Source: Planctomycetota bacterium (lineage in GTDB: Bacteria > Planctomycetota > B15-G4 > JADJEK01). Taken from it: a stretch of 64,000 nucleotides of DNA. The notes beneath the pieces are model-generated. The model did not search any database, was not told where the DNA came from, and worked only from the letters and a program-made list of their open reading frames with translations. Of the stretch, positions 15,412 to 38,780 are shown piece after piece. The stretch lies in assembly GCA_044225365.1 (NCBI GenBank), contig JBGAIQ010000009.1, positions 96,462 to 160,461 on the forward strand, in the 5' to 3' direction. A program made the position numbers and the translations under genes. Within the stretch, counting starts at the first letter, position 1. The number at the start of each line of letters is the position of its first letter.

Positions 15412-15420
15412 GTCGCGCCT

Positions 15421-18789: not shown

Positions 18790-18833
18790 CGTGTGATCAC
18801 CGCGTACGTCGCGACCTCGGAGGTCGGCGACGC

Positions 18834-22506: not shown

Positions 22507-22582
22507 GCTGCGGAAAACGCGACGAGTGGCGCGGGCGAACCGTCGCGGGATAGAATGCGCGGTCGTTCCCAGGAGCCGAGAC

Positions 22583-24481: not shown

Positions 24482-25765
24482 TCAGCCGCGGGTGCGGCGC
24501 AGGACGTCCGCGAGCGAGCGTGCCGAACGATAGCCGACGAGCTTCTCGACGATGCTTCCGTCCTTGTCGATGAAGACCATCGTCGGCACGATGGCCGCGT
24601 TGTGCCGCGCGGCGAGCGCGCGTTCGAGCGCCGGATTCAGTCGCACGCAGACGAAACGAGACCGCAAGAGCTCCGACACTTCGGCGTCCTGCAGAGTTCG
24701 CTGATCGAGATCACGCGCGATCTTCGACCAATCGGCGGTATAGAGCACGCAGAGCGTCTTCTTGTCCCTCTTCGCGAGCTCCTCGCCCTTGCCGATGTCG
24801 GTGAGCCATTCCACCGGCTTGTCGGTGCGGGGGCGCGGTGGCTCGAGCTGGAGCGGGTCGGAGTCGAGCAAGGCCTGCTGCGCGGAATCGACGCTCTCCT
24901 CGCCGACGTCGACCCGCCGCGCCTCCGGCATGAGACTCGTGATTCGATACGGAATGCCGCCGAACTGGATCGGAACGGTGCATGGAACGAGTTCGAGGCC
25001 CTGCGGGAGTGGCGCGCCTGGCGCGAGTTCGATCAGTGCCCAGCGTGCCGAGCCGACGGCGTACATCGCCGTACCGCTGTCGTCATAGAGCACGACCCGC
25101 GCGTCCTTGCCGAGCAGCTTCGCGGTTCCTTCGCGCCAGTTCGCATCGATCACGAAGAGCTTCGTCATCTCCGACGGATCGTTGGAGCGCGGGAGCCAGG
25201 AATAGAACGTGAATCGGCACGCGTCCTCGATCCGGTCCGAACCGCCGGACGTCTCAACCCTCGCGCCGAAGTAGACGGTGACGGGGACCGCGGTGAATTC
25301 GACGTAGTCGGTCTCGCGCTGCGGATCCTTCACGACGACACCCTTCACGGGCTCTTGTTCATCGCTCCCGGAGAAGGATTGATCGCGATCGCGATCGATC
25401 CACAGCAGGTCGTAGCGATGCGTCGAGGGATTCGATTGGTCGAGGATGATCGTCTGGCGCCCACCGCGGCCGAAGCGCACGATTCCGTAGAGCGGCGTGT
25501 CGCACCGGAGCTGCGGGAGTTGCTTGATCTCGAGCATCGGTTTCTGAGCGAGCGCGATGGCGGTCGGCGAGCGCGAGACGAACGGACGCTCAGCCGGGTT
25601 CCCGGCCACGAGTTCGAGGGGGAACGACGTCTTCTTGACGAGGTTTCCGGCCGTGATGCCAACCTGGTTCGGATCGTCCTGCTGCGGGTCGGGTTGTTGG
25701 GCGAACGCGCGGCTGAAGCACAGCGCGCCGAAGGCCACGGCGAAGGCGAACGGGAAACGAAGCAT
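24482..25765 (-). CDS. exported protein with C-terminal thioredoxin-fold domain (no CxxC)
   Basis: Signal peptide MLRFPFAFAVAFGALCFSRAFAQQ. The C-terminal ~100 aa (KTLCVLYTADWSKIARD...IVPTMVFIDKDGSIVEKLVGY) resembles a thioredoxin-like fold lacking the second active-site Cys. The track ORF (to 26029) has a junk N-terminal extension. Confidence 0.7.
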   Translation of the reverse strand: MLRFPFAFAVAFGALCFSRAFAQQPDPQQDDPNQVGITAGNLVKKTSFPLELVAGNPAERPFVSRSPTAIALAQKPMLEIKQLPQLRCDTPLYGIVRFGRGGRQTIILDQSNPSTHRYDLLWIDRDRDQSFSGSDEQEPVKGVVVKDPQRETDYVEFTAVPVTVYFGARVETSGGSDRIEDACRFTFYSWLPRSNDPSEMTKLFVIDANWREGTAKLLGKDARVVLYDDSGTAMYAVGSARWALIELAPGAPLPQGLELVPCTVPIQFGGIPYRITSLMPEARRVDVGEESVDSAQQALLDSDPLQLEPPRPRTDKPVEWLTDIGKGEELAKRDKKTLCVLYTADWSKIARDLDQRTLQDAEVSELLRSRFVCVRLNPALERALAARHNAAIVPTMVFIDKDGSIVEKLVGYRSARSLADVLRRTRG

Positions 25766-25829
25766 TCTCGAACTCTCTCTTCGAAGGAAGATCAGATTCT
25801 TCGGCGATCGACGGGCTCGCGCAAGAGCC

Positions 25830-27032
25830 CTACTTCTGGAAGATCGGCAAGTACTGCTGCGGCATGAGGAGGATGAGGCACGCGGACGCCGTGGAATAGA
25901 CTCGACCGTAGTCGCTCTCACCGATCGAGCCCTTCGGATCCTGGCTCTCCGCGAACTCGTCGACGATCGCCGTCTGCCACGCGCGGAACAGACTGGGATC
26001 ACGGTACAGGTAGTAGGCCTCTGCCGCATAGAGCCGCGCGTAGAAGGGATGAGTATCGCCGAGAGTGCGCAGGCTGGGATTCAGAACCGGATCCTTGATC
26101 TGCATGTACTCGATGCCGCGGTCGATCACGTCGCTGGCATAGTCGCCCGTGGCGTTGAGGGTCGCGATGGCGGCAGCCGTGAGTCCGTAACTCACCTGCT
26201 CCTTCATCATCTTGCTGTAGCAGAAGGCCCCGCTCGGCCGCTGGAGCTCCCTCACGTACTTCACGGCGTCGTCGATGCATTGCTTGTTGACGTAGATTCC
26301 GACGTCGCGTGCCGCTCGCAGGGCCTGGATCATCGTGATGGTGACCGACCCCTCGTGCTCGGCGTCTCCGGGCTCGTAATACCAGCCGCCATCCTTCGTC
26401 TGCGACCATTCGATGAGCTGGACGGCGTCGACGAGGATCCGGCGCAGCTCGGCCATCTCGCCGCGCACGCGCTTCACCGAGCCGTCCCCGTAGGCATCGT
26501 CGATGCGGTAGGTGCCATAGGCCTCGGCGAGGGCGAGGGTCGCGTACCCGTGGCCGTGCATCTTCGACGTCCCGTCACCGGGGAACGAGAAGTAGATGTG
26601 GTTGACGTCGATGTCCTCGGCCTTGTCCTCACCCAGAATCCGATGCGCGGTGAACGTCGTGGCGTTGCCGCACTTCATGAGGAACTGGATCGCCTTCTGC
26701 ACGTTCTCGCGATACGGCCCGCGGCCGAGCGTCGAGCCACCCGCCATGAACGCGAGCGCACTGAGGGCGGTCACGGCGACGGGAGCCGACGTCACTCCGG
26801 TATCGGACTTCGCCTTGTTGAACTGACCATCCTCGGCCTGTTGCTTCGCGAGCCACTCGAGCCCGCGCTGGCCGATCTCGAACGCGCGATCCTCGACCTC
26901 GCGCGTGGCGTGCTGGGAATTCCCGTCCGATCCGAAACCGGCGCCGCTCGGGCGGCACATCGCCTTCGCCGCGACGAGGATTGCCGCGACAGCGAGGACA
27001 GTGCTTACCGGGATGGCGCGGGCCGGGATCAT
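25830..27032 (-). CDS. exported prenyltransferase/squalene-oxidase-repeat (terpene-cyclase alpha/alpha-toroid fold) protein, paralog B
   Basis: Signal peptide MIPARAIPVSTVLAVAAILVAA. Repeated Q/W-rich toroid motifs (EWLAKQQAEDGQF, TKDGGWYYEPGD, RPSGAF). C-terminus YLPIFQK shared with paralog at 32941..34149. Start overlaps the upstream stop by 1 nt. Confidence 0.75.
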   Translation of the reverse strand: MIPARAIPVSTVLAVAAILVAAKAMCRPSGAGFGSDGNSQHATREVEDRAFEIGQRGLEWLAKQQAEDGQFNKAKSDTGVTSAPVAVTALSALAFMAGGSTLGRGPYRENVQKAIQFLMKCGNATTFTAHRILGEDKAEDIDVNHIYFSFPGDGTSKMHGHGYATLALAEAYGTYRIDDAYGDGSVKRVRGEMAELRRILVDAVQLIEWSQTKDGGWYYEPGDAEHEGSVTITMIQALRAARDVGIYVNKQCIDDAVKYVRELQRPSGAFCYSKMMKEQVSYGLTAAAIATLNATGDYASDVIDRGIEYMQIKDPVLNPSLRTLGDTHPFYARLYAAEAYYLYRDPSLFRAWQTAIVDEFAESQDPKGSIGESDYGRVYSTASACLILLMPQQYLPIFQK

Positions 27033-27742
27033 CAGGGCTGCTTGCTCTTGTTCCGCGTCCGGTAGTACTGCAACAGGAGCTCTCGATAGCGGTCCGGGAA
27101 CTCGTTCTGCGAGAGCTTCTGGAACATCTCCTGGACCTTCGGCGGCAGGACGCCCCAGCGGCCGGCGACGTTCTCGCGCTGGTACTTCTCCTTCTCCGAC
27201 GGCGGATCGACGCCATCCGCCTTCTGCTGATCCGGCTTGCTCTTGTCCGGCCCACCATCCTTCGGCTGGCCCGATTTCTCCTCGGGCTTCTGCTTGCCCT
27301 CGCCCTTGTCCTTCTCGCCTTGCTGCTTCAGCTTGTCGACCTCGGGATCCTTGCCCCGCTCGTCCTGCTGTTTCTGCTGGGGAGAGTTCTTGGGATCGGG
27401 CTCGCCCGACCCCTTGCCGCCGCTGTTGGACTGCCGCTTCGCCATGCGGACGAGTTCCTCGATGTCCGTCACGGCCTGCGACTGCTTGGATTGGATGTCC
27501 TTCAGCAGCTTGTCGAGATCGGCTTTCACCTGCTCGATCCTCGCGGCGGCATCCTTGGGCGCATCCTTCGCAGCCTGCAACAGCAGCTCGTCGATCTCGC
27601 CCATCTCCTTACGGATCTTGGCTTGGAGCTCCTTCGCCTTGATCTCGTCGGCTTGTCCCCCGTCCTGCGCGACCGCGCGCTGCGCGCTCACGCCCGTGAG
27701 GATCGCCGCGACGCAGAGGAATCGCTGGATGCGCGTGTTCAT
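27032..27742 (-). CDS. exported K/Q/E-rich low-complexity coiled-coil protein (236 aa)
   Basis: Signal peptide MNTRIQRFLCVAAILTGVSAQRAVAQ, then a highly charged, likely disordered region (KQQGEKDKGEGKQKPEEKSGQPKDGG...). Start overlaps the stop of the upstream gene (ATGA-type). Confidence 0.6.
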   Translation of the reverse strand: MNTRIQRFLCVAAILTGVSAQRAVAQDGGQADEIKAKELQAKIRKEMGEIDELLLQAAKDAPKDAAARIEQVKADLDKLLKDIQSKQSQAVTDIEELVRMAKRQSNSGGKGSGEPDPKNSPQQKQQDERGKDPEVDKLKQQGEKDKGEGKQKPEEKSGQPKDGGPDKSKPDQQKADGVDPPSEKEKYQRENVAGRWGVLPPKVQEMFQKLSQNEFPDRYRELLLQYYRTRNKSKQP

Positions 27743-30525
27743 TTGCCACCCGGGCCCTTCTCGTCCTTCACTTCGACCGGCGGCCCCTGCGAGTCGTCGA
27801 TCATGCCGCGGAAGAGTTTCGTGATCTCGGAGTGCTGTAGTCCGAGGCGGGTCAGGCGGTCACGCGAAATCGCGTCGAGACCACCCTCCGCATTGGCGCC
27901 CTGGAGCCGCATGAAGACGTCGAGACGCTTCATCATGCTCTCCTCCATTCGCTTCAACATGAGCAACTCGGCGACGGGCGGGATCAAGGGCTGCTTCTGT
28001 TGCTGCTGCGGCGAATTCCCGTTCTGGCCGTCCGGCGGCTGGCCCTCCTCGCCCTCCTTCGGCTTGAGCTTCGCCTGCTTGCGGCGCTCGACTTCTTCAT
28101 CGAGGGTCGCGAGAAGCGTGTCGTAGCGATCGAGGATGTCGCGCGCGATCGACTGCGTGAAGTCGTCGGTGCGGTAGGGAGCGGTCCCGAGCAGTTCGGT
28201 CACTCGATCGAAATCGCCGTCGTTCTGCTCGAGCGCGAACGTGAAGACCGTCGCTCCATCCTCGCGCAGCTTCGACACGACCTCCTGATTCTGCACCTTC
28301 AGTTCTCGCGACTTCTGCGCGAGCTTCTTCGACGTATTCTGTCCGACTCGCGACAGCTTGCCCTTGCTCTGGCGCTCGAGTTCGAGCTCCTCGGTCTTGG
28401 CTACGACCTCACCCTGGCCCGTACGAAGGAGGGTCAACTGCTCCTTCACCTTGAAGAGCAACTCCTCCTGGCGAAGGTTCTGGTACTTGTCCTTCTCCTG
28501 CTTCAGTTCCTGCTCGGCCTTCTTCAAGAACTTCTCGGCTTCTTCCTGGCGCGGGGTTGCTTCCTCGCCCTGCTCCTTCTTGAGGCTCGATGCCGCCTGA
28601 TCCATCTTCGATGCGGCGGCGGAGAGCGACTGCTCGCGTTCGGGCTTCTTCTCGTCGCGGATACGATCCATCAGCTCTTTCAGCTTCTTCTCGAGCTCCC
28701 GCTGACGGCTCTCGAGGTCGTCGTACTTCTGCTGCTGATCCGCGGCCGAAGGGGAGTCCTTCGCGGACTGCTCGGCTTCCGACTGCTGCTGGTCGAGCTC
28801 CTGCGAGGCCTTCTCGAGTTGTTCACCCGCCTCGCTCTGGCTCTTCGCTGCTTTCTCCTGCTGGCCGCTGCGCATCGATTGCGCCGCCTGCTGCATCGAC
28901 TGCGCCGCCGACTCCACGGCCTTCGAGGCTCCCGACGGCGAATCCTTCTTCATGGCCGCGTCGAGGCGGGAGAGCGTCTTCGCGAGAGCCTCGGCCTGCT
29001 GGCTCGCGTACTCCTGCTTCGCGGCGAGGGAGTCGCTCCGTTCCTGCGCAGCCTTCTCGGCACCGTCGATCGCGTTGCGCGCCTCCTTCATCTTCTCGAG
29101 CGCATCGCGTTGCGCCGCGGCCGCGCCTTCGAGGTCGGGCTTCTCCATCTCGGAACCGGCTTCGTTCGCCGCTTGCGCGCTCTGCTCGAGCGCCGCCGCC
29201 GCGTCGCTCGCTCGCTTCTGCGCCGCTTGGTTTCGTTCGGCGGCCTGCGGATCGCCCGCACTCTTCGAATCGCGTGAGTCCTGCGTCGGCAACTTCTCCA
29301 CCCGGGAAGCAGCTTCTGCGAGCTTCTTCGCTTCGTCACCGAGTTCGCGTTGCTGGTCGGCCGCCTTCGCGTCGGTCGCCGACTTCGAGAGCGCCTTGTC
29401 GAGCTGCGCCTTCGCGGCATCGACGTTCTCGTTCTCGGCGTTCGCGAGCTGCGCCGCCGTGGACGCGTCGCCGTTCTTCTCGGCGTCGCGCGCCGCCTTC
29501 ATCCGCTCCGAAGCACTCGCGAGTGCTTTGGCGAGGGCTTCGCGGGCGGTTGCGATCTCGGCGGCGTTCGCCGGATCCTTCGCGCCGTTCTCGCCGTTCT
29601 TTGCGTCGGCCGCGGTCGCCTCCTGTGACAACGCGTCCTTCGCCGCCGCGAGTTGTTCGGCAACCTTCTTCATCGCGTCGGCGTCGCCCGCGGCCTTCGA
29701 GTCGTCAGATGCGTCGGCCTTGGACTTCGGGGAGCCGTCGGCGGAGGCTGCCTCGGCCTTCTTGGCAAGGTCCTTCGCGAGAGCCTTCTGGGCTTCGATC
29801 GCGGCCTGTGCAGCGAGGAATCCGGGAGCCGCCCGCTCGAGCGAGTTCTCGGTCGCTGCGAGCGCGGCATTCTGCTTCGCGATCAGGTTCTCCAACTGGT
29901 GCTTCAGAGCGGCGAGTGCCGAGTCCTTCGACTGCGACTCGCTCGTGTTCTCCTTCGCCAGCTTCTGTTCGTTCTCCTTCAGGTCCTTCAACTGACTCTT
30001 CGCCTGCTCGGCGAGAGCCTTCGGATTCGTCGCCAGAACGGTCGTCTCGTTCGTCAGCTTCTGCTGCTCGCTCCGCACCTGCGCAATGTCGCGGACCGCT
30101 TGTTCGAGCTTCTTGGCTTCGGCGTCGAGCGAATCGAAGTCCGTTCGATCGAGGAGGATCGCGTACACGGACTCGAGATCCTTGAGCAGGTCCTCCTGCT
30201 CCTTCACCGAGGCGAACTCCTGGCGGTCGAGACTCGACCCGATCTTCTCGATCGTTCGGGTCAGCTCGCGCTTCTTGATCTCGGCGATCGCATTGTCGAG
30301 CAGGTCGGCGCTGTGCTGCTTTCCCTCCGCCCGCAGCCGCTTCGACAGCGACTCCATGTTCTTCTTCGTCGACTCGATGCGGCTCTTGAGGTTCTGCTGC
30401 TCCTGCGAGATGCGTTTGACGTCGGTCGCGGCGTCGGTCTCATCGCTCGCCCACGAGCGTGCGAACGGCAGTGCACAGAGCGACAGCGAGAGGAGACACG
30501 GAGCGAAGTGGAATCGGCTTCTCAT
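27739..30525 (-). CDS. exported giant coiled-coil protein (~928 aa)
   Basis: Start MRSRFHFAPCLLSLSLCALPFARSWA (signal peptide) at 30525. The remainder is almost entirely A/K/E/Q/S-rich heptad-like helix (SMC/apolipoprotein-like composition). The track ORF start at 30669 adds 48 junk residues. Confidence 0.7.
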   Translation of the reverse strand: MRSRFHFAPCLLSLSLCALPFARSWASDETDAATDVKRISQEQQNLKSRIESTKKNMESLSKRLRAEGKQHSADLLDNAIAEIKKRELTRTIEKIGSSLDRQEFASVKEQEDLLKDLESVYAILLDRTDFDSLDAEAKKLEQAVRDIAQVRSEQQKLTNETTVLATNPKALAEQAKSQLKDLKENEQKLAKENTSESQSKDSALAALKHQLENLIAKQNAALAATENSLERAAPGFLAAQAAIEAQKALAKDLAKKAEAASADGSPKSKADASDDSKAAGDADAMKKVAEQLAAAKDALSQEATAADAKNGENGAKDPANAAEIATAREALAKALASASERMKAARDAEKNGDASTAAQLANAENENVDAAKAQLDKALSKSATDAKAADQQRELGDEAKKLAEAASRVEKLPTQDSRDSKSAGDPQAAERNQAAQKRASDAAAALEQSAQAANEAGSEMEKPDLEGAAAAQRDALEKMKEARNAIDGAEKAAQERSDSLAAKQEYASQQAEALAKTLSRLDAAMKKDSPSGASKAVESAAQSMQQAAQSMRSGQQEKAAKSQSEAGEQLEKASQELDQQQSEAEQSAKDSPSAADQQQKYDDLESRQRELEKKLKELMDRIRDEKKPEREQSLSAAASKMDQAASSLKKEQGEEATPRQEEAEKFLKKAEQELKQEKDKYQNLRQEELLFKVKEQLTLLRTGQGEVVAKTEELELERQSKGKLSRVGQNTSKKLAQKSRELKVQNQEVVSKLREDGATVFTFALEQNDGDFDRVTELLGTAPYRTDDFTQSIARDILDRYDTLLATLDEEVERRKQAKLKPKEGEEGQPPDGQNGNSPQQQQKQPLIPPVAELLMLKRMEESMMKRLDVFMRLQGANAEGGLDAISRDRLTRLGLQHSEITKLFRGMIDDSQGPPVEVKDEKGPGGK

Positions 30526-30569
30526 GGTGTGCCTTACGACCGATTGCGCGCGGCGGGGTTCCATCGTTG

Positions 30570-32906
30570 TCATTCTCTCTTCAGCGACTGCTTGGTGCGC
30601 TGATTGAGCGACCGTTGATCCTCGACCAGATTGCGAAACGTCGCAACGATCTCTTGAAAACTCTCCCACTCATCGAGGCGGGCGATCAAGGCGTCGAGCC
30701 GTTCGAGCGCCCGTTTCTCCTCCTCGAGGGCTTGCCGCAAGGCCAAGGGCCGCTGCGCAGGATCGACGGCGAGCCGTGCATCGGACAGCGCTTTCGCGGC
30801 CGCCGGCGAATGCAGCTCGGCGACGTCGATCACGCAATGGATCATCTCGAAGATGCGACCGAGGATCTCGAGTCGACCGTACGCACTCGCGGCGTTCGCT
30901 TCGACGAGCGGTCGCCACAGCTTCGGATCGAACCCGTCCAATTGGGAGCTGCCGCGCTTCTTCTCGAGCATCACCGCGATCAATCCTTCGACGCCCGAAC
31001 TCGTGTCGAGCCGATTGAAGAGGTACTCCTCGAAGATCTCCGCGAACTCTCGGCACTGCTTCAGCGACCGTGCGGTCACCTGGTTCTGGCCCACCTCGAG
31101 CGTGGCGACGTCATCGGCCGTCGCGCCGGTCACCCCTTCGGCCTGGTCGAACTCCTTCAGGATCACTTCGAGTCGCTCGATCTTCTCCTGCTGGAGAGCG
31201 CGCAAGGAGCCGACCTCCTCCTTGGTGCGAGTCTGACGCTCCGCCAGGAGTCGCTGTTTCTCGCCGGGCGCGACGATGTCGACGCGCCGCTCCTCGATCG
31301 CCGTCTCGTTGCCGCCGGTCGAGGGCTTGCCGTCCTTGCCAAGGACGATGCCGTCGAAATTGTCCTTGGCCGCGACGCGATAGACGAGCGACTCCCCCGC
31401 CGCCATCGCGCGCGGCCCGCCTTCGTGCTCGAACACCTTCTGCTTGAGGTCGAGGTGCTCGTAGACGAGGACGCGACGCGATTCGTCCGGACCCTTGCCG
31501 ATCGGGAAGTCGATCTTCAGCGGGGTCGCACCGCCAAACGGCTTCATCTCGATCGCGAGGCTCGTGAGTCCGTAATCGTCGTCGGCGGCGATCCGCAACG
31601 GAACGATGCCGTTCGGTGTCACGTCGACGTCGGCGCGGCCGGGCTCGAGGACTCGCACGGTCGGACCGCGATCCTTGACGGCGAGGACCGAGTAGGTCGG
31701 GGGTTCGAGATTCTTGAACCCGATGTCCGAGACCAGCTCGATGGAATAGGCGCACGACTGCGTGATGTCGAACGACGCTCGCAGCTTCCGCGAATTCGAA
31801 TCGGCGACGAGTAGAAGCGGCAGTGCCGCGATCCCGCTGTCGAAGACGAGGCGACCGGCGGCCACCGCATCGGCGGTCTGGACGTCGATCGTGACGTGTG
31901 TCCCGACGAGTCCTTCCACGTCGCCTCGTGGTTCGACCCGCGGTCCGAGACCGGTGTAGGCCGGGAACTGGAGCTGCGACGTGACGCTCGCGACCGCGGG
32001 CGGCGTGAAGATCTCGACTTCGACTTCGCGGCCGCCGCCATCATCGTCGCCGCCGACCGGTCGGAACGTGAAGGGCGCGCGCACCGATCGGAACCGGCCC
32101 GCCCACTCACCATTGCCCGTCGACGACAGGGCGATCTTCGAATCCCCGCTCTCGCGCGACTCGGTCCGGACCTCGACGAGCTCGGGGTTCTCGCCGTTCG
32201 CCGTCACTGCGACCGGCAGACTCGCGCCACGAGCGATGCGGACGCGAATCGGGCGCTTCTCGTTCGAGGAGTCCTTCGCGTCGTATTCCACGACGTAGTG
32301 CGTGCCGTGCTCGGGGAACTTCACCGCGAGCATCGTGCGTTGCGGCCATCGTGCGCTCCCGCCGAGTAGGCGGCGGAAGAAGACGTCGGCGAGCGACGAC
32401 TGCGTCGCCACGAACGTGATGACGCCGAGGACGAGCACGGCCGCCGCCGCGCCGAGGCGCTGCAGGTGCCGATACTCGAAGATCGTCGAAAGGGGCAGGG
32501 TGGCCCGGATCGCCGAAGTCTCGCGCCGCAAGTCGGCGACGAGCTCGGGCGACACGTTGCGCTGCGGATCGATCGCCTCGCCCTCGAGTTCGAGGACCGC
32601 GAGCAGACGGCCGTCGAACTGCGGGAAGCGCCGCTCGATCGCACACGCGACATCGCGCTCGGTCGGCCGCTTCTTCAGGGGGTAGACGATGCCGCGATAT
32701 ACCTGCACGGCGAGGCCGGCGACGACGACGAGCAGCAGCACGATGCGAACCGGCGCGGGCAGGGCGAGCGACCGATCGAGGACGTAGAGGGCGGCGAGCC
32801 CGCAGCATACGAAGGCGACGACGCGCGCGATTCCATACAGCAGCGCGAGCTTGAGCCAGCGGCCCGCGAGACGCGAGAATTCGGCGCGCAGTTCGTTCAG
32901 GTCCAT
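30570..32906 (-). CDS. membrane-anchored large protein (778 aa; N-terminal double TM, large extracytoplasmic domain, C-terminal coiled-coil)
   Basis: TM helices LKLALLYGIARVVAFVCCGLAALYVL and IVLLLVVVAGLAVQVY near the N-terminus, a third after the FEYRHLQR segment. Long beta-rich middle. Helical E/R/L-rich C-terminus. No catalytic motif recognised. Confidence 0.7.
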   Translation of the reverse strand: MDLNELRAEFSRLAGRWLKLALLYGIARVVAFVCCGLAALYVLDRSLALPAPVRIVLLLVVVAGLAVQVYRGIVYPLKKRPTERDVACAIERRFPQFDGRLLAVLELEGEAIDPQRNVSPELVADLRRETSAIRATLPLSTIFEYRHLQRLGAAAAVLVLGVITFVATQSSLADVFFRRLLGGSARWPQRTMLAVKFPEHGTHYVVEYDAKDSSNEKRPIRVRIARGASLPVAVTANGENPELVEVRTESRESGDSKIALSSTGNGEWAGRFRSVRAPFTFRPVGGDDDGGGREVEVEIFTPPAVASVTSQLQFPAYTGLGPRVEPRGDVEGLVGTHVTIDVQTADAVAAGRLVFDSGIAALPLLLVADSNSRKLRASFDITQSCAYSIELVSDIGFKNLEPPTYSVLAVKDRGPTVRVLEPGRADVDVTPNGIVPLRIAADDDYGLTSLAIEMKPFGGATPLKIDFPIGKGPDESRRVLVYEHLDLKQKVFEHEGGPRAMAAGESLVYRVAAKDNFDGIVLGKDGKPSTGGNETAIEERRVDIVAPGEKQRLLAERQTRTKEEVGSLRALQQEKIERLEVILKEFDQAEGVTGATADDVATLEVGQNQVTARSLKQCREFAEIFEEYLFNRLDTSSGVEGLIAVMLEKKRGSSQLDGFDPKLWRPLVEANAASAYGRLEILGRIFEMIHCVIDVAELHSPAAAKALSDARLAVDPAQRPLALRQALEEEKRALERLDALIARLDEWESFQEIVATFRNLVEDQRSLNQRTKQSLKRE

Positions 32907-32940
32907 CGGTTGATCGGGTCCGTCTCGTGGTCCATCGGGC

Positions 32941-34149
32941 TCAGCGCTGCAGGATCGGCAAGTACCGGTAAGGGACCTGCAGGATGATCGACGCTACGGC
33001 GGTCGAGAAGGCGTCGCCGGGACCCTCCTTGTTGCGCCAGAAACCGTCGCGCGTCTGCACGTTCAACAGGTCCGCCTTGATGCTTTTATAGTACCGACTC
33101 CACCACGGGTCGCCCGCGACAAAGAACGCCTGCACCGCGTAGTAGTGGCCGTACCAGAAGAAGAAGTGTTCGTAGCGACTCCGCATCTGGTCGTACTCGC
33201 GCTCGAGGAGATCGAGCGACTCGCGAAGGGTTTCGTTCGAGTACACGCCTGCGTTGTAGAGCGATGCGATCCCCGCCGCCGTGAGCGCGAACGAACTGCG
33301 CGTGTTGTCCTGCTTCTGATACTTGAACGAGCCGCGCTTCAAGAAGTAGTAGTCGTTCGAGTCGCCGTATCCCGCGTAGGGGTCGTCCTCCGGCTGATAG
33401 GAGTCGATGACGTACTTCACGGCGTTGTCGATCGTGGTCTTCGGGACCTTGATCCCGATGTTGCGAGCCGAGCGCAGCGCCATGATCTGGCAGACCGTGA
33501 TCGACATGTCGGACTCGATCGCGAACGGCTCGTAGCGCCACGAACCGTAGCTGTTCTGCGATTCGACGATGAGGTCGACGGCGCGCTGCAGTTTCTCGCG
33601 CAGGTCGTTGCGATGCGTCATCCCGACGACTTCGGACAGGAAGAGCGTCGCGAACGCGTGGCTGTACATGCGCGTTCCGTCGCGCGAGATGTAACCGTGC
33701 TCGTCGACCGAGGTGAGGATGAAGTCGATCGCCTTCGTCAGCGTCTCGCCGTAGCGGCCGCGACCCGGCAGATTGCCGCCCGCGAGGTACGCCATGCCCG
33801 CGAGCGCCGTCACCCCGACGTGATGGACCTTCTCGTGCTCGACCATGTAACTCTGATTCAGCTTGAAGCCGACATCCCCGGTCCACGAGCCGTCGGCGTT
33901 CTGCTGCTTCTGGAGCCAGCGCAGCGCCTTGTCGACCGCGGTCGCCACCGCGGGATCGGGATCATCGGCACCCACGTTCGAATCGTCGCTCGCAGTGACG
34001 GGGACGGGTGCGATGGGCGACACCCCGAACGACACGAGCGGCGCGAGGAGGACGAAGCCCACGCCGAGTCCGAGCGACCGAAACATTCTCATGGATTCGA
34101 TTCCTTCAAGCGTTCGCGCGGGGTCCATCGACTTTCCTTTGCCGCTCAC
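32941..34149 (-). CDS. exported prenyltransferase/squalene-oxidase-repeat protein, paralog A
   Basis: Same architecture as 25830..27032 (LRWLQKQQNADGSW, SQNSYGSWRY, C-terminal YLPILQR). Start overlaps the stop of the 1544-aa gene (ATGA). A signal-like segment FRSLGLGVGFVLLAPLVSFG follows a possible internal start. Confidence 0.75.
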   Translation of the reverse strand: MSGKGKSMDPARTLEGIESMRMFRSLGLGVGFVLLAPLVSFGVSPIAPVPVTASDDSNVGADDPDPAVATAVDKALRWLQKQQNADGSWTGDVGFKLNQSYMVEHEKVHHVGVTALAGMAYLAGGNLPGRGRYGETLTKAIDFILTSVDEHGYISRDGTRMYSHAFATLFLSEVVGMTHRNDLREKLQRAVDLIVESQNSYGSWRYEPFAIESDMSITVCQIMALRSARNIGIKVPKTTIDNAVKYVIDSYQPEDDPYAGYGDSNDYYFLKRGSFKYQKQDNTRSSFALTAAGIASLYNAGVYSNETLRESLDLLEREYDQMRSRYEHFFFWYGHYYAVQAFFVAGDPWWSRYYKSIKADLLNVQTRDGFWRNKEGPGDAFSTAVASIILQVPYRYLPILQR

Positions 34150-37100
34150 TTCGAAGTCTCGTAGACGGCGAGAGCCGTTCCGGACAGGACCGCGAAGTGG
34201 CGCGGGGTTGCAACGCTCTGCACCGGCGCGCGTTCCGAGGTCAGCGGGATCTCGACCGCGGCGAACGTGCCGGCATCGGGCGCGAACGTGAATAGGTACG
34301 TGCGCCGGGGATTGCCCGACGCACGCCGGATCTCCGCGAGACCGTAGACGTCACCGGTTCGGGTGAGCGACGCGCGGAACGTCGGACTCCCGGGGGGCAG
34401 GGCCGTCATGTCGACCGTTCGTTCGATCGCTTTCTTGTCGAGGTCGATCACGACGAGGCGATCCCGCTTCGCCGCTCCCGACCCCGTGCCCGCGCCGACG
34501 AGCACGAAGCGGCGCTTGGACGTGCCGCTTCCCGTGTCGAAGGCTCGCAGGTTCTCGAGGCCCATGACACACTGTTCGACCGTTCCCGTCCGCGGCTCAA
34601 GTCGGCTGACCGAAACGATCCCGCGCGGGGATCGCGTGTAGGTCGGCGAGGTTCCCTTGGGCAACAGGAATCCGTTCGTGGTCGGAACGAGCCACTCGAA
34701 CGACATCGGGAACGGCACTTCCTTCACGTAGGCGAGCGGCCGACCGTCCTCGAGGTCGAACGACGCGAGCGACTTCGTCTCGGCGTTCTCGCGACCGAGC
34801 GTCAACACGACGCCGAACTCCTCGTAAGCGCGCGCTTCGAACCGCTTGTTCATCGCGAGGTTCGAGATCGCGAAACGCTTCACGCCCGTGAGCGCATCGA
34901 GCGACACGACCGTCGGCTGCTCGCTCGCGCCGATCGCCAGCACGGCATCGCGGACGGCTTGGATTTCGAGGCACTCGAAATCGAGCGGCGTCGACCACAG
35001 CACCATGCCGGTCGCGGTCTCGACGGCGACGATCATCGAAGCGCCTTGCGTCGGTGGCGTGAGCAGCGCGAAGATCAGGCTGCCCGCGGAATCGACCGCC
35101 CCCACCGAGGCCCCGGAACTCCCGGCGAGGCTCGTATCGAAGCGGGTGATACCGCTCTTCTTGTCGATCCCGAACAGCCGATCCCGCTGCCGAAAGACGA
35201 TGCGATCTCCGATCGAGAACGCTCGCAGCGGGTCGAGGTCCGACGCATAGGCCGGCACGCGAACGTGCCAGATCTCCGACAACGTCGCGAGGTCGATGCG
35301 ACGCAAGACGGCGTCGGGCGCTCCGAGTTGCTCCTCCTCGTACACCAGGATCGCATCCTCGGAGTCGAATTCGACGGGGACGAGCACGCTGCGCGTCACC
35401 TGGAGTTCGAGCGTCTTCGCCGCAGGATCGGGGAGTCGCTCGAGGCGCGCCCTCTCCGCGACCGCGGCCGGCTCGGCCCCGAGGGCTTCGAGATCACGGG
35501 TTGCGACGCTGCGCACGTCCGAGGCCGGCTCGACGACGCTCGCGGCCGCCGAACCCGTCGCGACGATGCGCTTCAGCATGAGGCGAGCGAGCGCGGAATC
35601 GCCAGCGAGCGCGGCGCCGCGCGCAGCGAGGAGGAGAGCGTTCTGCCGATCGCCGTCGTCGTTCGCGGAAGTGAGCAGCGGCGCGACGACGCGGAACACC
35701 TCGGAGTACTCCTTGCGTTCGAGGCGGATCATCGCGAGGTCGAGACGCGCCCGCGGCGCCGCGGCGGCGTTCGGGAATCGCATCACGATCTCGAGGAGGG
35801 CCGCCGCATTGCGCGACGCGCTCGCCGCGCTGCGGGCGTCGCTCGCGGCGGCGTCGAATTCGGCGTAGATCGATCGGCCGTACTTTGCGATGGCATCCGC
35901 GATGAGTCGCTCGGCGTGCTTGCCCGCAGTTCCACCCGGGAAAGGGGTGTCGCGATACAGATCGATGATCCGCTGCCAACTCGAAACCGCCGCCTTGGCG
36001 TCGCGGCGGCCGAGCGCATACACGGCGCGCCGATCGAGGGTGTAGAGACCCGCGGGGATCGGAGTGCCGTAGGCGTTCGCCGCGAAGGCGTACTGCGCAT
36101 TCGGACAGCGCTCGTCGATCCAGTCGAGGACCGCCGGGATCCGCGAAGGATCCGCAGCCTCGAGCGAGTGGATCAACTGTTCGCAGGCGCGGAGGAAGTC
36201 GGCGTCGTCGAGGGAATGCTCCGCCTCCGCGAATCGGTGCTGCGCGGCCACCGCTGCGAGCCCGGACTTGTCGGCGCGTTCTGCGAGTTGATGATGCGCC
36301 ACCGCGAGTCGCTCGTGTGCGCGACGAACCAGGCTCGCATCGGTCGCGGGGGACGAGATCGATGGATCGGCCAGTACGCCCTCGAACTCCGTGATCGCAC
36401 GCTCGACGTTACCGCGCAGTGCCAGCAACTCTCCGAGATCGACGTGATCGGCGAGCGTGCCCTTGCCGCTGCCGATCCGCGTCTCGACGCGCTGGATCAG
36501 GTTCTCGAGATCGTAGAACACCGTCATCTGGCTCGCGGAGACGACGATCTGGAAGTCGCGATGCACCAGGAGATTCCCGGGCAATCCCGCCGAGTCCGAG
36601 AAACCCCAGTCGAGCGTGCGATCGCGCAGATCCATTCCCGCCTTGGTCCGCTGGTACCGCAATTCGAGCAGGCCTTCGGCGAGCGGTTGGAAGAGGACAC
36701 CGTCGCCGAGGCAGCCGCGGCCCGCGTACGACCGCGCCTGGCGGAAGCGATAGGCCCCGAGGAGTCGACCGTTGCGAAGATCGTGGAAACCGATCCCGCT
36801 CGGCCCGGAGAAGATCACGGCCCCCTGATCCACACCGAGCACGGTGCAGTAGTCGAAGGGATGGTTCTTGTCCTGATTGCACTCGACCGACCAGAGGATC
36901 TTGCCCGTCGACGCCTCGTACGCGTAGGCCGAATCCGAGTCGAGCGGAGTGACGATGCAGACTCCCTCGCGCACGATGGCCGGATCGTTGATCCAGAACC
37001 GCGGCCGCTCGAAGGTGCGTCGATAGTGACGCGTCGCCTTGATGGGAATCGCTTCGTACTGCGCGAGCCAGCGAGGATTGCCGGTGAGACCGTCGAGGCA

Positions 37101-38780
37101 GCCGGAGAGCCCGAGATTCGTCGACAGGAAGATCGAGCCGTCCTTCTCCGCGACCATCTGGGTCGTGAATTCCTTGAACGGCTTGTTGAACATCGTCAGC
37201 TCCTGCTGACCGATGACGAGCGGCGTCTTCCACAGGAGCGAGCCGTCCTGCAGCGAGAGGCACATCGCGTAGACGTTGATCGCGCCCTCGAGCAGCGAAC
37301 CCGTCACGTAGATCCGATCCCCCACCGCGACGGGCGCCGAGAGGATCGAGACACGATTGATGAAATCGTGGAGCGGGCGATCATCGCGCCGCATGCGCCA
37401 CAGCAGCCTGCCGTTCTCGACGTCGACCGCGTAGAGCCCGCGCCGCGGAACGGTCTGGGTGATGCGCGTCTGATCGAACTCCACGTCCCGGCCGTGGGGC
37501 GCGGGTTCGAGGAGGGCGCCGAGAACCACGTGATCGGAGATCGTCGCGACGAGCGGCAAGGAGCGGGCCAGGGTCCCGAAATCGTTGTCCATTCCGGGCA
37601 TCGGGCTGTCCCAGAGCAGACTGTTGAAGTCGTAGAGCTGGGGCGCGACGGAGCCCGAGAGCGGCCCGATGTACTTCCACTTCGGCGTGGCCGAGTAGAA
37701 CGACCAGGCGCGGATCGAGAGACCATCGCAGAGGACGATGACATCGGAGGCGACGACCGGATGGAACGGACTCGATTCCCGGATCTCGCGAACCCGACGC
37801 CACGGATTCTCGTCACCACTGAAGGAGTCCGTCGTCCAGCGCGACGCGAACGTCAGCGCCTCGGGATCGAACTGGACGAGTCCATCGTGGGCGCCATTGC
37901 CGCCGACCACCGGCCACGCGGCGTCCCTCGGGGGCATCATCGAGCCGAACTCCGGCAGGATCCCACGGGCTTTCGCCGGCGAGCCGGAGACCGTGACGGA
38001 GGGATCGCCGAATCGCTCGATCCAGCGCGACGCCGGCGAGTCCGAACGGCCGAACGCCGCCGACGCGGCCGCGAGGAATGCATCCCCGGATGCCTTCTCC
38101 GCTGTGCTCGATACGGATTCGAATGCCAGCTTGCGGCCGTAGAAACGCTCGGATGCTTCGAAATCACCGCGCTCGAGGGCGAGGCGACCGAGACGATCGA
38201 GCGCGCGTTGCCCTTCGGGAGTGAGTTCCCAGAAGCGCACGAACTCGATCAGCTTCGAAGGATCCTGGGTCTCGGCGATCGCCCGCCAGAGCGACTCGGA
38301 TCGCAGGCGAGCGAACTCGGTGTAGGCGGCGCGACCCTCGGCCGGGAACGACGCGATGAGGTACTTTGCGTACTCCGCGGCCCCGACGTAGCGCGGCGGG
38401 TCGTTCGCCACTTGGTAGACGTGTGTCGGGTAGAGAGTGATCAACTCCTGGAGCGAGTCACACGCGACGCGGTATTCGCCGCGCCGCATCGCATCGCGCG
38501 CCGACTCGAACAGCACGCGGACCCGCGCCGTCGTCTGCACCGCGAACGTCGCGACGGCGCTGTGATCCGGGTCGTACTTGAAGTTCGGGTCCTGGATCGA
38601 CTCCCATCCGCCGAACGGCAAGAACGGTTCGTCCTGGGCCCGCAGGACCGAAGTCGTCAGGAGGCCAACGACGACCGCGGCCACCGCCGCGCCGGAGGCA
38701 GTGGAGATGCGAGCGGCCGGAACGGCGGCCGTTGCTCGCGGCGCGCCCTCGTCCGTGCGGTGTTTCGAAGCGAGCTTCAC
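34146..38780 (-). CDS. giant exported PQQ-like beta-propeller repeat protein (1544 aa) with TPR-like helical regions
   Basis: Signal peptide AAVAAVVVGLLTTSVLRAQDEP. Repeated beta-propeller blade patterns of PQQ/BamB type (GRLLWRMR, GSLLWKTPL, GKILWSV, GMVLWSTPL). Intervening helical repeat regions. Confidence 0.75.
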   Translation of the reverse strand: MKLASKHRTDEGAPRATAAVPAARISTASGAAVAAVVVGLLTTSVLRAQDEPFLPFGGWESIQDPNFKYDPDHSAVATFAVQTTARVRVLFESARDAMRRGEYRVACDSLQELITLYPTHVYQVANDPPRYVGAAEYAKYLIASFPAEGRAAYTEFARLRSESLWRAIAETQDPSKLIEFVRFWELTPEGQRALDRLGRLALERGDFEASERFYGRKLAFESVSSTAEKASGDAFLAAASAAFGRSDSPASRWIERFGDPSVTVSGSPAKARGILPEFGSMMPPRDAAWPVVGGNGAHDGLVQFDPEALTFASRWTTDSFSGDENPWRRVREIRESSPFHPVVASDVIVLCDGLSIRAWSFYSATPKWKYIGPLSGSVAPQLYDFNSLLWDSPMPGMDNDFGTLARSLPLVATISDHVVLGALLEPAPHGRDVEFDQTRITQTVPRRGLYAVDVENGRLLWRMRRDDRPLHDFINRVSILSAPVAVGDRIYVTGSLLEGAINVYAMCLSLQDGSLLWKTPLVIGQQELTMFNKPFKEFTTQMVAEKDGSIFLSTNLGLSGCLDGLTGNPRWLAQYEAIPIKATRHYRRTFERPRFWINDPAIVREGVCIVTPLDSDSAYAYEASTGKILWSVECNQDKNHPFDYCTVLGVDQGAVIFSGPSGIGFHDLRNGRLLGAYRFRQARSYAGRGCLGDGVLFQPLAEGLLELRYQRTKAGMDLRDRTLDWGFSDSAGLPGNLLVHRDFQIVVSASQMTVFYDLENLIQRVETRIGSGKGTLADHVDLGELLALRGNVERAITEFEGVLADPSISSPATDASLVRRAHERLAVAHHQLAERADKSGLAAVAAQHRFAEAEHSLDDADFLRACEQLIHSLEAADPSRIPAVLDWIDERCPNAQYAFAANAYGTPIPAGLYTLDRRAVYALGRRDAKAAVSSWQRIIDLYRDTPFPGGTAGKHAERLIADAIAKYGRSIYAEFDAAASDARSAASASRNAAALLEIVMRFPNAAAAPRARLDLAMIRLERKEYSEVFRVVAPLLTSANDDGDRQNALLLAARGAALAGDSALARLMLKRIVATGSAAASVVEPASDVRSVATRDLEALGAEPAAVAERARLERLPDPAAKTLELQVTRSVLVPVEFDSEDAILVYEEEQLGAPDAVLRRIDLATLSEIWHVRVPAYASDLDPLRAFSIGDRIVFRQRDRLFGIDKKSGITRFDTSLAGSSGASVGAVDSAGSLIFALLTPPTQGASMIVAVETATGMVLWSTPLDFECLEIQAVRDAVLAIGASEQPTVVSLDALTGVKRFAISNLAMNKRFEARAYEEFGVVLTLGRENAETKSLASFDLEDGRPLAYVKEVPFPMSFEWLVPTTNGFLLPKGTSPTYTRSPRGIVSVSRLEPRTGTVEQCVMGLENLRAFDTGSGTSKRRFVLVGAGTGSGAAKRDRLVVIDLDKKAIERTVDMTALPPGSPTFRASLTRTGDVYGLAEIRRASGNPRRTYLFTFAPDAGTFAAVEIPLTSERAPVQSVATPRHFAVLSGTALAVYETSK

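Follow-up and report, generated by a model that had tools for sequence, protein, structure and literature searches.

Gene content and layout

The window, a stretch of 64,000 nucleotides from a Planctomycetota bacterium, holds an array of genes closely spaced on one strand and joined in part by ATGA, GTGA and TGATG overlaps. Its members, together with a hairpin at its distal end, are as follows:

47678-49945, minus strand: PQQ755, exported TPR-like and beta-propeller protein; weak PQQ_2 match
46519-47622, minus strand: MoxR-type AAA+ ATPase; AAA_3 (E 3.4e-63) and AAA_lid_2
45645-46562, minus strand: DUF58 protein, VWA-like; DUF58 (E 5.4e-39)
43330-45648, minus strand: BatA-type membrane protein; BatA (E 4.3e-15), VWA_2 and CARDB
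40874-43333, minus strand: VWA850, second membrane VWA protein; VWA, GATase1_like and MG2-like (Pfam)
38952-40870, minus strand: ClC chloride channel/antiporter with a CBS pair; Voltage_CLC (E 2.5e-87) and CBS
34146-38780, minus strand: PQQ1544, PQQ/TPR giant, 1544 aa
32941-34149, minus strand: toroid 1 (Tor1), probable start at the ATG at 34128
30570-32906, minus strand: TM778, membrane protein, 778 aa
27739-30525, minus strand: CC928, coiled coil, 928 aa
27032-27742, minus strand: KQE236, K/Q/E-rich protein, 236 aa
25830-27032, minus strand: toroid 2 (Tor2), 400 aa
24482-25765, minus strand: Trx-like protein, 427 aa
24464-24479, no strand assigned: GC-rich hairpin GGCGAC-GCGG-GTCGCC, read directly from the sequence

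The original prediction counted eight tightly packed minus-strand genes between 24482 and 38780. The packing is borne out, but the ORF check of this interval gives seven genes, a number also reached by independent gene calling in the orthologous contig L002. Two of the described overlaps, ATGA at 27739-27742 and TGATG at 27032, flank the KQE236 gene as stated, while the supposed ATGA at 34146-34149 reads GTGA; in the NCBI-derived toroid 1 product P0032 the start is the ATG at 34128, preceded by AAGGA. All seven products carry an N-terminal hydrophobic signal or anchor by a heuristic criterion, in agreement with the proposed export or membrane anchoring. On the other hand, 38780 is not the start of the module, as the same-strand array reaches upstream as far as MoxR (47622) at the least, and probably includes PQQ755 (49945), with a 172-nt gap and the ClC gene between its two halves in this genome. 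At the distal end, the Trx gene and a PP-loop gene converge, and the hairpin separates their stop codons; judged from its sequence, it is a possible bidirectional terminator that would close the unit. A T-run is lacking, and the hairpin was missed by the consensus terminator scan, in which terminator-like sites showed no excess (13 found, 12.5 expected). The surroundings of the array are housekeeping genes (enolase, ThiS/ThiG, NusA/IF2) that are kept across species.

Nearly all domain calls made beforehand were upheld, with Pfam returning PQQ_2, SQHop_cyclase_C/Prenyltrans and Thioredoxin_2/7. PQQ1544 is an exported protein that begins with a TPR-like region and combines it with two beta-propellers of the PQQ_2/BamB kind (two PQQ_2 stretches, E 4.5e-18) and a middle part that is helical, its TPR matches falling below the Pfam cutoff. 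PQQ755, the probable first gene of the array, encodes a collinear paralogue of its N-terminal half (BLASTP E 1e-8, collinear segments). The exported Trx-like protein joins an N-terminal domain to a C-terminal DsbH-like Trx-fold domain, which matches Thioredoxin_2/7 here and Thioredox_DsbH in orthologues; it lacks CxxC, as predicted, and all 7 of 7 orthologues have W-S/N-x-x-x in its place.

Topology was assigned by hydropathy and the positive-inside rule, with no dedicated predictor. MoxR, with intact Walker A (GVPGLAKT) and Walker B (ILADEINR) motifs, and the DUF58 protein, its presumed co-factor with a MIDAS-like DCSES motif, have neither a signal peptide nor a TM segment and are therefore predicted to be cytoplasmic. 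BatA, whose gene shares an ATGA overlap with that of DUF58, has TM segments at 8-26, 58-76 and 741-759, the first two forming an N-terminal hairpin whose loop is rich in R/K, followed by a VWA domain with the MIDAS motif DTSYS, beta-sandwich domains and the C-terminal TM; from this layout, the VWA domain appears to be periplasmic. VWA850 shares the topology of BatA and has the MIDAS motif DASAS, and its start is set at 43333 because of the GTGA overlap with the BatA stop codon. The start codon of ClC is uncertain, the ORF being open to 41192 and overlapping the preceding gene.

Conservation of the array and the split DUF4175 protein

Gene neighbourhoods, proposed earlier as a check, show synteny far above chance. 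It was found in 38 species-representative Planctomycetota genomes and also on contigs from metagenomes, at identities as low as about 28%, with the recurring order (PQQ755)-MoxR-DUF58-BatA-VWA-giant propeller-toroid-TM778-coiled coil-K/Q/E protein(-toroid)(-Trx). PQQ1544 lies upstream of toroid 1 in 26 of 27 informative loci, and the predicted order that follows was kept as well: toroid 1 directly upstream of TM778 in 32 of 33, CC928 downstream of it in 24 of 24, the K/Q/E protein next in 16 of 20 and then the second toroid in 15 of 20. VWA850 is present upstream at 21 of 24 loci, and its orthologues, found at most loci, are 34-77% identical. PQQ755 also precedes MoxR in L046, L047, L050 and L057, and metagenome loci carry enolase, PQQ755, MoxR, DUF58, BatA, VWA850, PQQ1544, Tor1 and TM778 in one string. 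The Trx-like protein is confined to a close clade. Only the window, L002, L010, L011 and L013 have ClC between VWA850 and PQQ1544, and it is a clade-specific insertion within the operon.

This insertion and the 172-nt gap could also mean that MoxR-DUF58-BatA-VWA and PQQ-toroid-DUF4175 are two mere neighbours with their own promoters and unrelated functions, and the available part of a report on the Leptospira bat cluster describes independent promoters inside it (PMC3557215). However, where relatives have no ClC, only 10-80 nt separate the end of the VWA gene from the giant propeller gene, DUF4175-type genes directly follow BatA/VWA genes in distant lineages devoid of the propeller and toroid 1, and the linkage persists at about 28% identity, so that we regard such independence as improbable. 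Given the gap and ClC, there may nevertheless be an internal promoter and separate regulation of the two halves.

The three genes between the toroids were described as encoding a double-TM protein, a coiled coil and a disordered protein. TM778 has three hydrophobic helices rather than two (25-43, 49-67 and 151-169), with a conserved loop of about 80 residues between the second and third that is probably cytoplasmic. Its AF2 model (pLDDT 88) shows a TM hairpin, the helical loop, the third TM, a string of Ig-like domains, presumably periplasmic, and a helical bundle. TM778 itself scores 26.2 bits against DUF4175, below the Pfam cutoff of 27.3, while its orthologues carry PF13779. CC928, an A/E/K/Q-rich helical protein with a signal-peptide-like N-terminus and heptads weakly enriched relative to shuffled sequences, is above the cutoff at 31.4 bits and covers profile positions 646-795 of 825. 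KQE236 is exported and of low complexity, with a conserved tail RWGxLPxK...FPxxYRxLxxxYYR that aligns with the C-terminal tail of one-piece DUF4175 proteins; its HMM matches the extreme C-terminus of P0024 (E 1.5e-4), and the motif is C-terminal in 3 of 9 long and 0 of 168 short family members. From the Pfam coordinates and the tail motif, we read TM778 as the N-terminal piece, CC928 as the middle/C-terminal piece and KQE236 as probably the tail piece of a split DUF4175 protein. The TM778 family comprises 23,815 representative clusters at 50% identity, and because the best 150 of these are mostly about 770 aa long, the split form is common in the clade.

One-piece DUF4175 proteins (PF13779), known from Gemmatimonadota and other phyla, share with the split form an N-terminal TM region, a beta-rich periplasmic region with FPAYTGL and DDDYG motifs, and a long Q/E/K/A-rich helical region closed by a PxxYRxLxxxY(F/Y) tail. 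Their genes likewise come after MoxR-DUF58-BatA, but form a single gene, whereas the window has three, with a signal peptide on each exported piece. Simpler variants are BatA-VWA-DUF4175-toroid and, in Gemmatimonadota, MoxR-DUF58-BatA-DUF4175; among distant loci, L004 and L005 retain BatA, VWA, DUF4175-N, DUF4175-C and a toroid, and L003 and L006 retain MoxR, DUF58, BatA and DUF4175. The sole experimentally studied DUF4175-labelled protein found, Acinetobacter baumannii AdvA, spans the membrane with two TM helices and has a role in the envelope or in division (PMC7481262). What it would have in common with TM778 is the DUF4175 label, and the available part of that report presents it as a cell-division protein, with no MoxR/Bat operon link stated there.

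The toroids

The toroids are exported single-domain alpha/alpha-6 barrels with QW motifs, and their predicted paralogy was confirmed (31% identity, E 2e-42, both C-termini YLPI(L/F)Q). Toroid 2 matches SQHop_cyclase_C (E 4e-8) and Prenyltrans. Toroid 1 is the most conserved extracytoplasmic component, with a median identity of 52% against 28-32% in its neighbours; the best 120 of its 4639 family matches are all at least 49% identical, and its many invariant polar and aromatic residues include H157, E166, W197, Y199, R219, R222, Y270, Y326 and Y330. Such conservation (52% against about 29% for the structural parts) is more in keeping with an enzyme than with a passive module of a scaffold.

In regard to this, the toroids, chiefly toroid 1, could be active periplasmic enzymes acting on an envelope lipid or glycan, for example a polyprenyl/hopanoid-type or polysaccharide substrate, with the DUF4175, propeller and VWA proteins as a positioning platform. 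The very large toroid 1 family, the QW motifs and the closest structures, which are enzymes (cyclases 8paj/8pak, MstE, AprG transaldolase, GH76 mannanases and 2-epimerases), agree with this. However, a motif search found the DxDD motif of class II cyclases in neither toroid, similarity to cyclases of solved structure is marginal at the sequence level (E 1e-3 to 0.1), the fold is equally common to non-enzymatic TED domains, toroid 2 is dispensable at 5 of 20 loci and the array has no isoprenoid or glycan biosynthesis genes. Tor1 and Tor2, which lack this general-acid motif and belong to a MoxR/VWA operon and not to a terpenoid cluster, are only 13-21% identical to the toroids of class II terpene cyclase type that consist of a single domain (8paj/8pak, MstE 6sbb); the exported uncharacterised protein YPO2471 (7tem), another structural relative, is equally remote (13-21%). 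We therefore consider an enzymatic module a possible but unlikely explanation.

The TED-like fold also suggests an alpha-2-macroglobulin-like trap or surveillance device, in which MG-like sandwiches of VWA850 and TM778 and TED-like toroids would seize proteases or foreign proteins in the periplasm. VWA850 has a weak MG2 match (E 1e-4), toroid 2 and the L004 toroid have weak TED_complement matches (E 4e-3), and A2M and C3 chains are among the Foldseek matches of TM778. These last, however, are Ig/FN3/MG-like matches only, of generic folds, and every A2M-related match is under the Pfam cutoff. With the CxEQ thioester motif in neither toroid (motif search), no bait-region-like architecture, and separate genes in place of one MG-TED chain, such a trap is highly improbable.

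Relation to Bat/MoxR operons and proposed role

The original prediction recognised no named system at this locus. Directly upstream on the same strand, however, lie MoxR, DUF58, BatA-VWA and a second VWA protein, and it was a Bat/aerotolerance apparatus that had been named beforehand as an assignment speaking against the proposal. Because of these genes and the DUF4175 matches of TM778 and CC928, the seven genes are taken to be the distal portion of an extended operon of the Bat/MoxR type. "Uncharacterised" is still a fair description, since Bat/MoxR-type systems have no established mechanism. It is well supported that the seven genes form the periplasm-facing distal half of an array that is conserved in Phycisphaerae-type Planctomycetota and has about 12-13 genes, in the order PQQ755, MoxR, DUF58, BatA-VWA, VWA/GATase1-like, (ClC), PQQ/TPR giant, toroid 1, DUF4175-N (TM778), DUF4175-C (CC928), DUF4175 tail (KQE236), toroid 2, Trx-like. 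The array is an elaborated MoxR-proper/Bat-type (MoxR-DUF58-BatA-VWA) operon whose DUF4175 gene, elsewhere usually a single one, is divided into three.

The Bacteroides aerotolerance (BatI)/MoxR-proper (MRP) operons (B. fragilis batA-E and the Leptospira, Borrelia and Riemerella bat loci) share with the array a MoxR AAA_3 ATPase with adjoining DUF58, a BatA-type protein with an N-terminal double TM and VWA, another VWA protein of the membrane and additional exported repeat proteins, all co-directional (PMC5700661, PMC3557215, PMC11834572). In the array, a BatD-family protein was not found, nor was a clear BatC/BatE TPR-SH3 protein, the TPR matches being sub-threshold only. In contrast to these operons, it has two PQQ-like propeller/TPR proteins, one or two alpha/alpha toroids and the split DUF4175, in addition to its clade's ClC and CxxC-less Trx protein, and belongs to another phylum. 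The broadly conserved Rhizobium leguminosarum operon RL3499-RL3502 (cmdA-D), going by the papers that cite it (PMC5118466, PMC5700661), also begins with a MoxR-like ATPase and DUF58 followed by membrane proteins, but has four genes only.

The joint presence of MoxR, VWA and beta-propeller proteins recalls the MoxR-vWA-beta-propeller "ternary" conflict or defence systems of the type of Kaur et al. 2020, and the ATPase does match Pfam bpMoxR (E 2.3e-11). Nevertheless, AAA_3 scores far above it, Pfam found no VMAP, iSTAND or effector domains in the array proteins, PADLOC gave no match for nine proteins, the components are membrane or exported proteins, and the context is a stable housekeeping one across species and not a variable island. 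We consider a defence role extremely unlikely.

The set of exported and membrane proteins is dedicated and conserved, with no catalytic motif recognised, as originally described, and an assembly in the envelope is the most plausible reading. In our view, the best explanation, with a probability of about 0.6, is that the seven genes are the distal half of a Bat-type array encoding a membrane-anchored periplasmic scaffold, remodelled by MoxR/DUF58, with a role in the envelope. According to this scaffold model, BatA, VWA850 and TM778 would be inner-membrane anchors whose MIDAS-VWA domains, beta-sandwich/Ig-like domains and helical bundle reach into the periplasm. The exported DUF4175 pieces, the beta-propeller/TPR proteins and the toroids would dock on these anchors to form a large scaffold, with the propeller/TPR proteins and toroids serving as ligand- or protein-binding modules. 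From the cytoplasm, the MoxR hexamer and its VWA-like partner DUF58 would work on conserved cytoplasmic loops and tails in the membrane subunits, with the R/K-rich loop of BatA and TM778 residues of about 70-150 as the candidate targets, and ATP hydrolysis would lead to the complex being assembled, gated or remodelled. The BatA-type protein BB0173 of Borrelia, with its VWA domain in the periplasm (PMC5700661), and the general model of a peptide captured by vWA and then remodelled by MoxR (PMC7159879) provide precedents. The coupling across the membrane we purely infer, since MoxR and DUF58 are predicted to be cytoplasmic and the VWA domains of BatA and VWA850 periplasmic.

Mutants of Rhizobium RL3499-RL3502 are cited in PMC5118466 and PMC5700661 as defective in envelope and cell morphology (Vanderlinde 2011), and Riemerella MoxR affects stress resistance (PMC11834572). 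An envelope or stress role generalises weakly, because deletion of the whole bat locus in Leptospira gave no phenotype (PMC3557215). By analogy with related MoxR/Bat operons, the most likely physiological role of the array would be in envelope homeostasis or stress tolerance.

Gene content of the region and of its upstream half

The G+C content of the window lies at 63-69% throughout, and spurious open reading frames are therefore abundant; a single set of minus-strand frames nevertheless fills the segment 24482-38780 and leaves no space for others. Eight genes had been claimed for this segment, but seven are counted here, as they are in the gene calls of the orthologous contig L002.

Genes filling 24482-38780, with the source of the domain or helix call
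34146-38780, minus strand: PQQ1544, the giant propeller/TPR protein, 1544 aa; PQQ_2 twice (Pfam)
32941-34149, minus strand: toroid 1, 402 aa; SQHop_cyclase_C/Prenyltrans (Pfam)
30570-32906, minus strand: TM778, membrane protein, 778 aa; three transmembrane helices (hydropathy)
27739-30525, minus strand: CC928, coiled coil, 928 aa from the signal-peptide start at 30525
27032-27742, minus strand: KQE236, K/Q/E-rich protein, 236 aa
25830-27032, minus strand: toroid 2, 400 aa; SQHop_cyclase_C/Prenyltrans (Pfam)
24482-25765, minus strand: thioredoxin-like protein, 427 aa from the ATG at 25765; Thioredoxin_2/7 (Pfam)

The domain calls made from the sequence alone for the giant, both toroids and the last protein are borne out by these Pfam matches, and hydropathy places an N-terminal signal or anchor on each of the seven products, as had been proposed. 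The paralogy of the toroids likewise stands (31% identity, E 2e-42, with YLPI(L/F)Q at both C-termini), while the membrane protein described as "double-TM" has three helices and not two. In regard to the gene junctions, the ATGA at 27739-27742 and the TGATG at 27032 are present, but the junction at 34146-34149 reads GTGA and not ATGA; the NCBI-derived protein P0032 begins at an ATG 21 nt inward of the start of this junction, with AAGGA ahead of the ATG. Rfam returned no matches in the window, and scans for promoters and terminators gave background levels only. A strong AT skew (-0.42) at 28001-30000 falls on the coiled-coil gene and is explained by its sense strand, which is rich in A owing to codons for Ala, Lys, Glu and Gln; it does not mark replication or a mobile element.

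Five more genes lie upstream on the same strand, encoding a ClC/CBS protein, VWA850 (a membrane protein with VWA, GATase1_like and MG2-like domains), a BatA protein with a VWA domain (BatA772), a DUF58 protein and a MoxR AAA_3 ATPase, and ahead of moxR lies the gene for a 755-aa exported protein (PQQ755) that is paralogous to, and collinear with, the first half of the giant at its N-terminal side. MoxR matches AAA_3 with E 3.4e-63 and retains intact Walker A (GVPGLAKT) and Walker B (ILADEINR) motifs. The DUF58 gene follows directly downstream (45645-46562, Pfam E 5.4e-39), an order repeated in the related loci L003, L006 and L046-L059. BatA772 carries PF07584 (E 4.3e-15) and VWA_2, transmembrane segments at residues 8-26 and 58-76 and the MIDAS sequence DTSYS; VWA850, at 40874-43333, has DASAS and counts as the BatB-like second membrane VWA protein. 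DxSxS MIDAS motifs occur in DUF58, BatA and VWA850. The genes overlap by ATGA at DUF58/BatA and by GTGA at BatA/VWA850. The ClC chloride channel/antiporter gene with its CBS pair (38952-41192, minus strand) stands between VWA850 and the giant, and a start at its first ATG would make it overlap the gene before it by about 300 nt; this insertion occurs only in the window and in four close relatives (L002, L010, L011 and L013), and elsewhere the flanking genes abut.

Three paralogue pairs are found in the array (40874-49945 and 25830-38780, minus strand), namely PQQ755/PQQ1544, BatA772/VWA850 and toroid 1/toroid 2, with BatA772 and VWA850 alike in topology and domain order, and they suggest that the array was duplicated internally long ago or that its products form a pseudo-symmetric assembly. 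The array is flanked by housekeeping genes for enolase, ThiS/ThiG, a PP-loop ATPase, NusA, IF2 and CysRS. Elsewhere in the window, an RHS-repeat/YD-shell protein of 1341 aa (953-4978, minus strand; RHS_repeat E 6.9e-74) is presumably a polymorphic toxin. Long frames without a Pfam match are found at 4938-9092, 14989-19179, 20197-22506 and 52432-54921 on the plus strand and at 20140-22698 on the minus strand; most of them overlap annotated genes of the opposite strand and are probably high-GC artefacts, while 20197-22506 may be a conserved gene of 604-651 aa that stands next to ThiS in L001 and L002.

The original prediction regarded the region as a stand-alone module that matches no named system. 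With MoxR, DUF58, BatA-VWA and a second VWA protein, the array has the core set that defines a Bat/MoxR-proper operon, so that the Bat/aerotolerance assignment, named beforehand as the outcome that would speak against novelty, is in substance what was found; nor does the module stand alone, as five Bat-type/ClC genes lie upstream and the 778-aa and 928-aa proteins fall on one DUF4175 model. In comparison with a Bat operon, the array adds the propeller giants, the toroids and the split DUF4175. Pfam gave no match to BatD or SH3 (BatE) among all array proteins and no clear match to TPR (BatC), the only TPR matches being sub-cutoff ones at residues 88-123 of PQQ1544. The ternary MoxR-vWA-beta-propeller systems of Kaur et al. 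2020 (PMC7159879) offer another comparison, and the array could accordingly be read as a conflict system. However, VMAP, iSTAND and variable effector domains are absent from Pfam scans of the array and PADLOC gave no matches for nine proteins, which makes such a reading less likely, and a defence role was rejected on these grounds. The full-text literature searched gave no description of this operon form, mentioned DUF4175 only for AdvA and did not yield YPO2471, and the individual genes carry routine public names (DUF4175 family, terpene cyclase/mutase family, prenyltransferase/squalene oxidase repeat).

A DUF4175 protein distributed over neighbouring genes

CC928 matches DUF4175 (PF13779) at profile positions 646-795 of 825 with 31.4 bits, above the gathering cutoff of 27.3 bits, and TM778 matches positions 192-325 with 26.2 bits, just under it. 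PF13779 is borne by the TM778 orthologues P0004, P0009 and P0013, and P0027 is named a DUF4175 family protein. The regions of this family (N-terminal transmembrane, beta-rich, and long low-complexity helical) are here spread over two to three genes instead of one polypeptide, while one-piece forms are found elsewhere (P0024, P0027, P0031). In its AF2 model (pLDDT 88), TM778 consists of a transmembrane hairpin, a helical loop, a third transmembrane helix, Ig-like beta-sandwiches at about 190-545 and a C-terminal helical bundle. The helical loop between the hairpin and the third helix, predicted to be cytoplasmic, is conserved, with A87, E91 and P95 invariant. A sequence search of TM778 against the PDB gave no matches, and Foldseek of the model gave only generic Ig, FN3 and MG-type ones.

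CC928 is rich in A, E, K and Q and has its own signal peptide. KQE236 is of low complexity apart from a conserved tail, RWGxLPxK…(F/V)PxxYRxLxxxY(Y/I)R. Of the nine family members of at least 900 aa, three, the fused proteins P0024, P0027 and P0031, terminate in a PxxYxx(L/M)xxxY(F/Y) tail, which is absent from all 168 short members; of the six other long members, at least two visibly stop within low-complexity repeats. From the Pfam positions and this tail distribution, we read TM778, CC928 and KQE236 as one DUF4175 protein divided into three genes. An HMM of the KQE tail matched only one fused protein significantly, and the place of KQE236 as the third piece, held with moderate confidence, therefore follows mainly from the motif pattern.

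Conservation of the array

A TM778-family profile gave 38 loci from species-representative genomes, and the proteins of the window served as tblastn queries to establish their synteny. All loci but one are labelled Planctomycetota or unclassified, many of them Phycisphaerae; the remaining one bears the label Pseudohongiellaceae, probably through mis-binning. Among informative loci, a toroid lies directly upstream of TM778 in 32 of 33, with the giant propeller (26 of 27) and VWA850 (21 of 24) farther upstream, while downstream the coiled coil is present in all 24, the K/Q/E protein in 16 of 20 and the second toroid in 15 of 20. The count for the K/Q/E protein is affected by tblastn misses that may hide its presence, as in L024, where a Q-rich 255-aa protein has the same tail. 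In the subclade of L024 (15375-18875), L026, L029, L033 and L041, the array ends after this K/Q/E-like protein, whose tail reads KYRKFWEAYLK, the second toroid is absent and the next gene encodes a P-type cation ATPase. The thioredoxin-like gene and the convergent PP-loop gene are confined to the close clade.

A metagenome scan with one BatA protein gave no matches. Seeded with BatA orthologues, the scan recovered contigs carrying enolase-PQQ755-MoxR-DUF58-BatA-VWA850-giant-toroid-TM778 as one string, together with simpler strings of MoxR, DUF58, BatA, VWA850, a TM778-like protein, (coiled coil) and toroid. In other lineages, Gemmatimonadota among them, more distant TM778 homologues follow (DUF4159-)MoxR-DUF58-BatA, and others stand within a string of BatA, VWA, DUF4175-N, DUF4175-C and toroid. 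The synteny counts at informative loci rule out a chance juxtaposition; that the array joins two unrelated neighbouring units is less likely. In an exhaustive search, the TM778-family profile matched the representatives of 23,815 clusters formed at 50% identity (E ≤ 1e-3), 10,641 of them at E ≤ 1e-30. At 16787-19441 of L003, a distant MoxR-DUF58-BatA-DUF4175 locus, a ubiquitin-like conjugation cassette (Prok-E2_B/ThiF and Prok-JAB) and a Peptidase_M78 gene adjoin; these are probably unrelated neighbours.

Proposed working of the array and the role of the toroids

Beyond the observed gene content, motifs and conservation, a working can be proposed in which topology is a prediction from hydropathy and the positive-inside rule. 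BatA, VWA850 and TM778 would be the membrane anchors of a periplasmic complex built from VWA, Ig-like, coiled-coil, propeller/TPR and toroid modules. MoxR and DUF58, both in the cytoplasm, would assemble or remodel this complex by way of the loops or tails that the membrane subunits expose on that side. Such a scaffold leans on the general vWA-MoxR model (PMC7159879), on the VWA domain of Borrelia BB0173, which is oriented towards the periplasm (PMC5700661), on the envelope and morphology phenotypes of a related Rhizobium operon (Vanderlinde 2011, as related in PMC5118466 and PMC5700661) and on the stress phenotype of the Riemerella operon (PMC11834572). The Leptospira bat deletion, which had no phenotype (PMC3557215), counts against it, and the aerotolerance or stress phenotype of Bat operons is inconsistent between model organisms (PMC3557215 vs PMC11834572).

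The toroids bear on this proposal in several ways. Toroid 1 is modelled (pLDDT 86, pTM 0.83) as one alpha/alpha-6 toroid into which a beta-hairpin is inserted, and both proteins combine the alpha/alpha toroid with QW motifs, as do class II terpene cyclases of the squalene-hopene cyclase type; these motifs tie toroid 1 to the cyclase/prenyltransferase superfamily. Fold and QW motifs are shared with class II cyclases, but the DxDD general-acid motif occurs in neither toroid, and a canonical terpene cyclase was rejected for this reason. The scores of the NCBIfam cyclase models, 22-41 bits, lie below their cutoffs (320-850), and sequence searches against the PDB gave marginal cyclase matches only. 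Alternatively, the assembly could trap its targets in the manner of alpha-2-macroglobulin, to which a TED_complement match (E 0.004, under the cutoff) would point. This is less likely, as the toroids, compared with the alpha-2-macroglobulin/complement TED, are stand-alone proteins separate from MG domains and not joined to them in one chain; they also lack the CxEQ thioester motif, and a thioester protein was rejected accordingly.

The main rival to a scaffold would make toroid 1 a true enzyme, for which the remaining components serve as a platform. The family of toroid 1 is very large, and toroid 1 is the most conserved extracytoplasmic component (median identity 52%, vs 29% for TM778), conserved like an enzyme; the missing DxDD weighs on the other side.

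The thioredoxin fold of the last protein lacks CxxC, as had been noticed: ADWSKIA replaces WCxxC and the cysteines are missing in all seven orthologues, so that a redox-active thioredoxin was rejected. Its domain is of the DsbH/DUF255 type, and the orthologues match PF03190. YyaL-type proteins, e.g., PDB 7tkv_B, have a DsbH/DUF255 domain fused to an alpha/alpha-6 toroid, and the adjoining genes of toroid 2 and the thioredoxin-like protein (24482-27032, minus strand) could possibly be a Rosetta-stone link to this fusion.

To a more far-reaching reading we give roughly one chance in eight: the array of about 12 genes would encode a machine, so far undescribed and specific to Planctomycetota, that spans the periplasm and is regulated by ATP. 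Its split DUF4175 coiled-coil stalk and two propeller/TPR giants, together with a toroid 1 that is catalytically active, would construct or maintain some distinctive feature of the envelope. This feature may be a planctomycetal envelope structure that is morphologically known and molecularly unassigned.

Few bacterial gene clusters without a mechanism are as widespread as the MoxR-DUF58-BatA-VWA operons, and the DUF4175-type component alone forms about 23,800 clusters at 50% identity. The downstream genes should not be taken as a separate novelty; the locus is a well-conserved, elaborated form from which all the extracytoplasmic partners can be listed, namely an Ig-like stalk, a coiled coil, a tail peptide, propellers and toroids. 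For a "known unknown" system, it thereby provides concrete lists of subunits and testable hypotheses on how they interact. If the periplasm-spanning machine proves true, toroid 1 would represent a new class of periplasmic enzyme within the terpene-cyclase fold.
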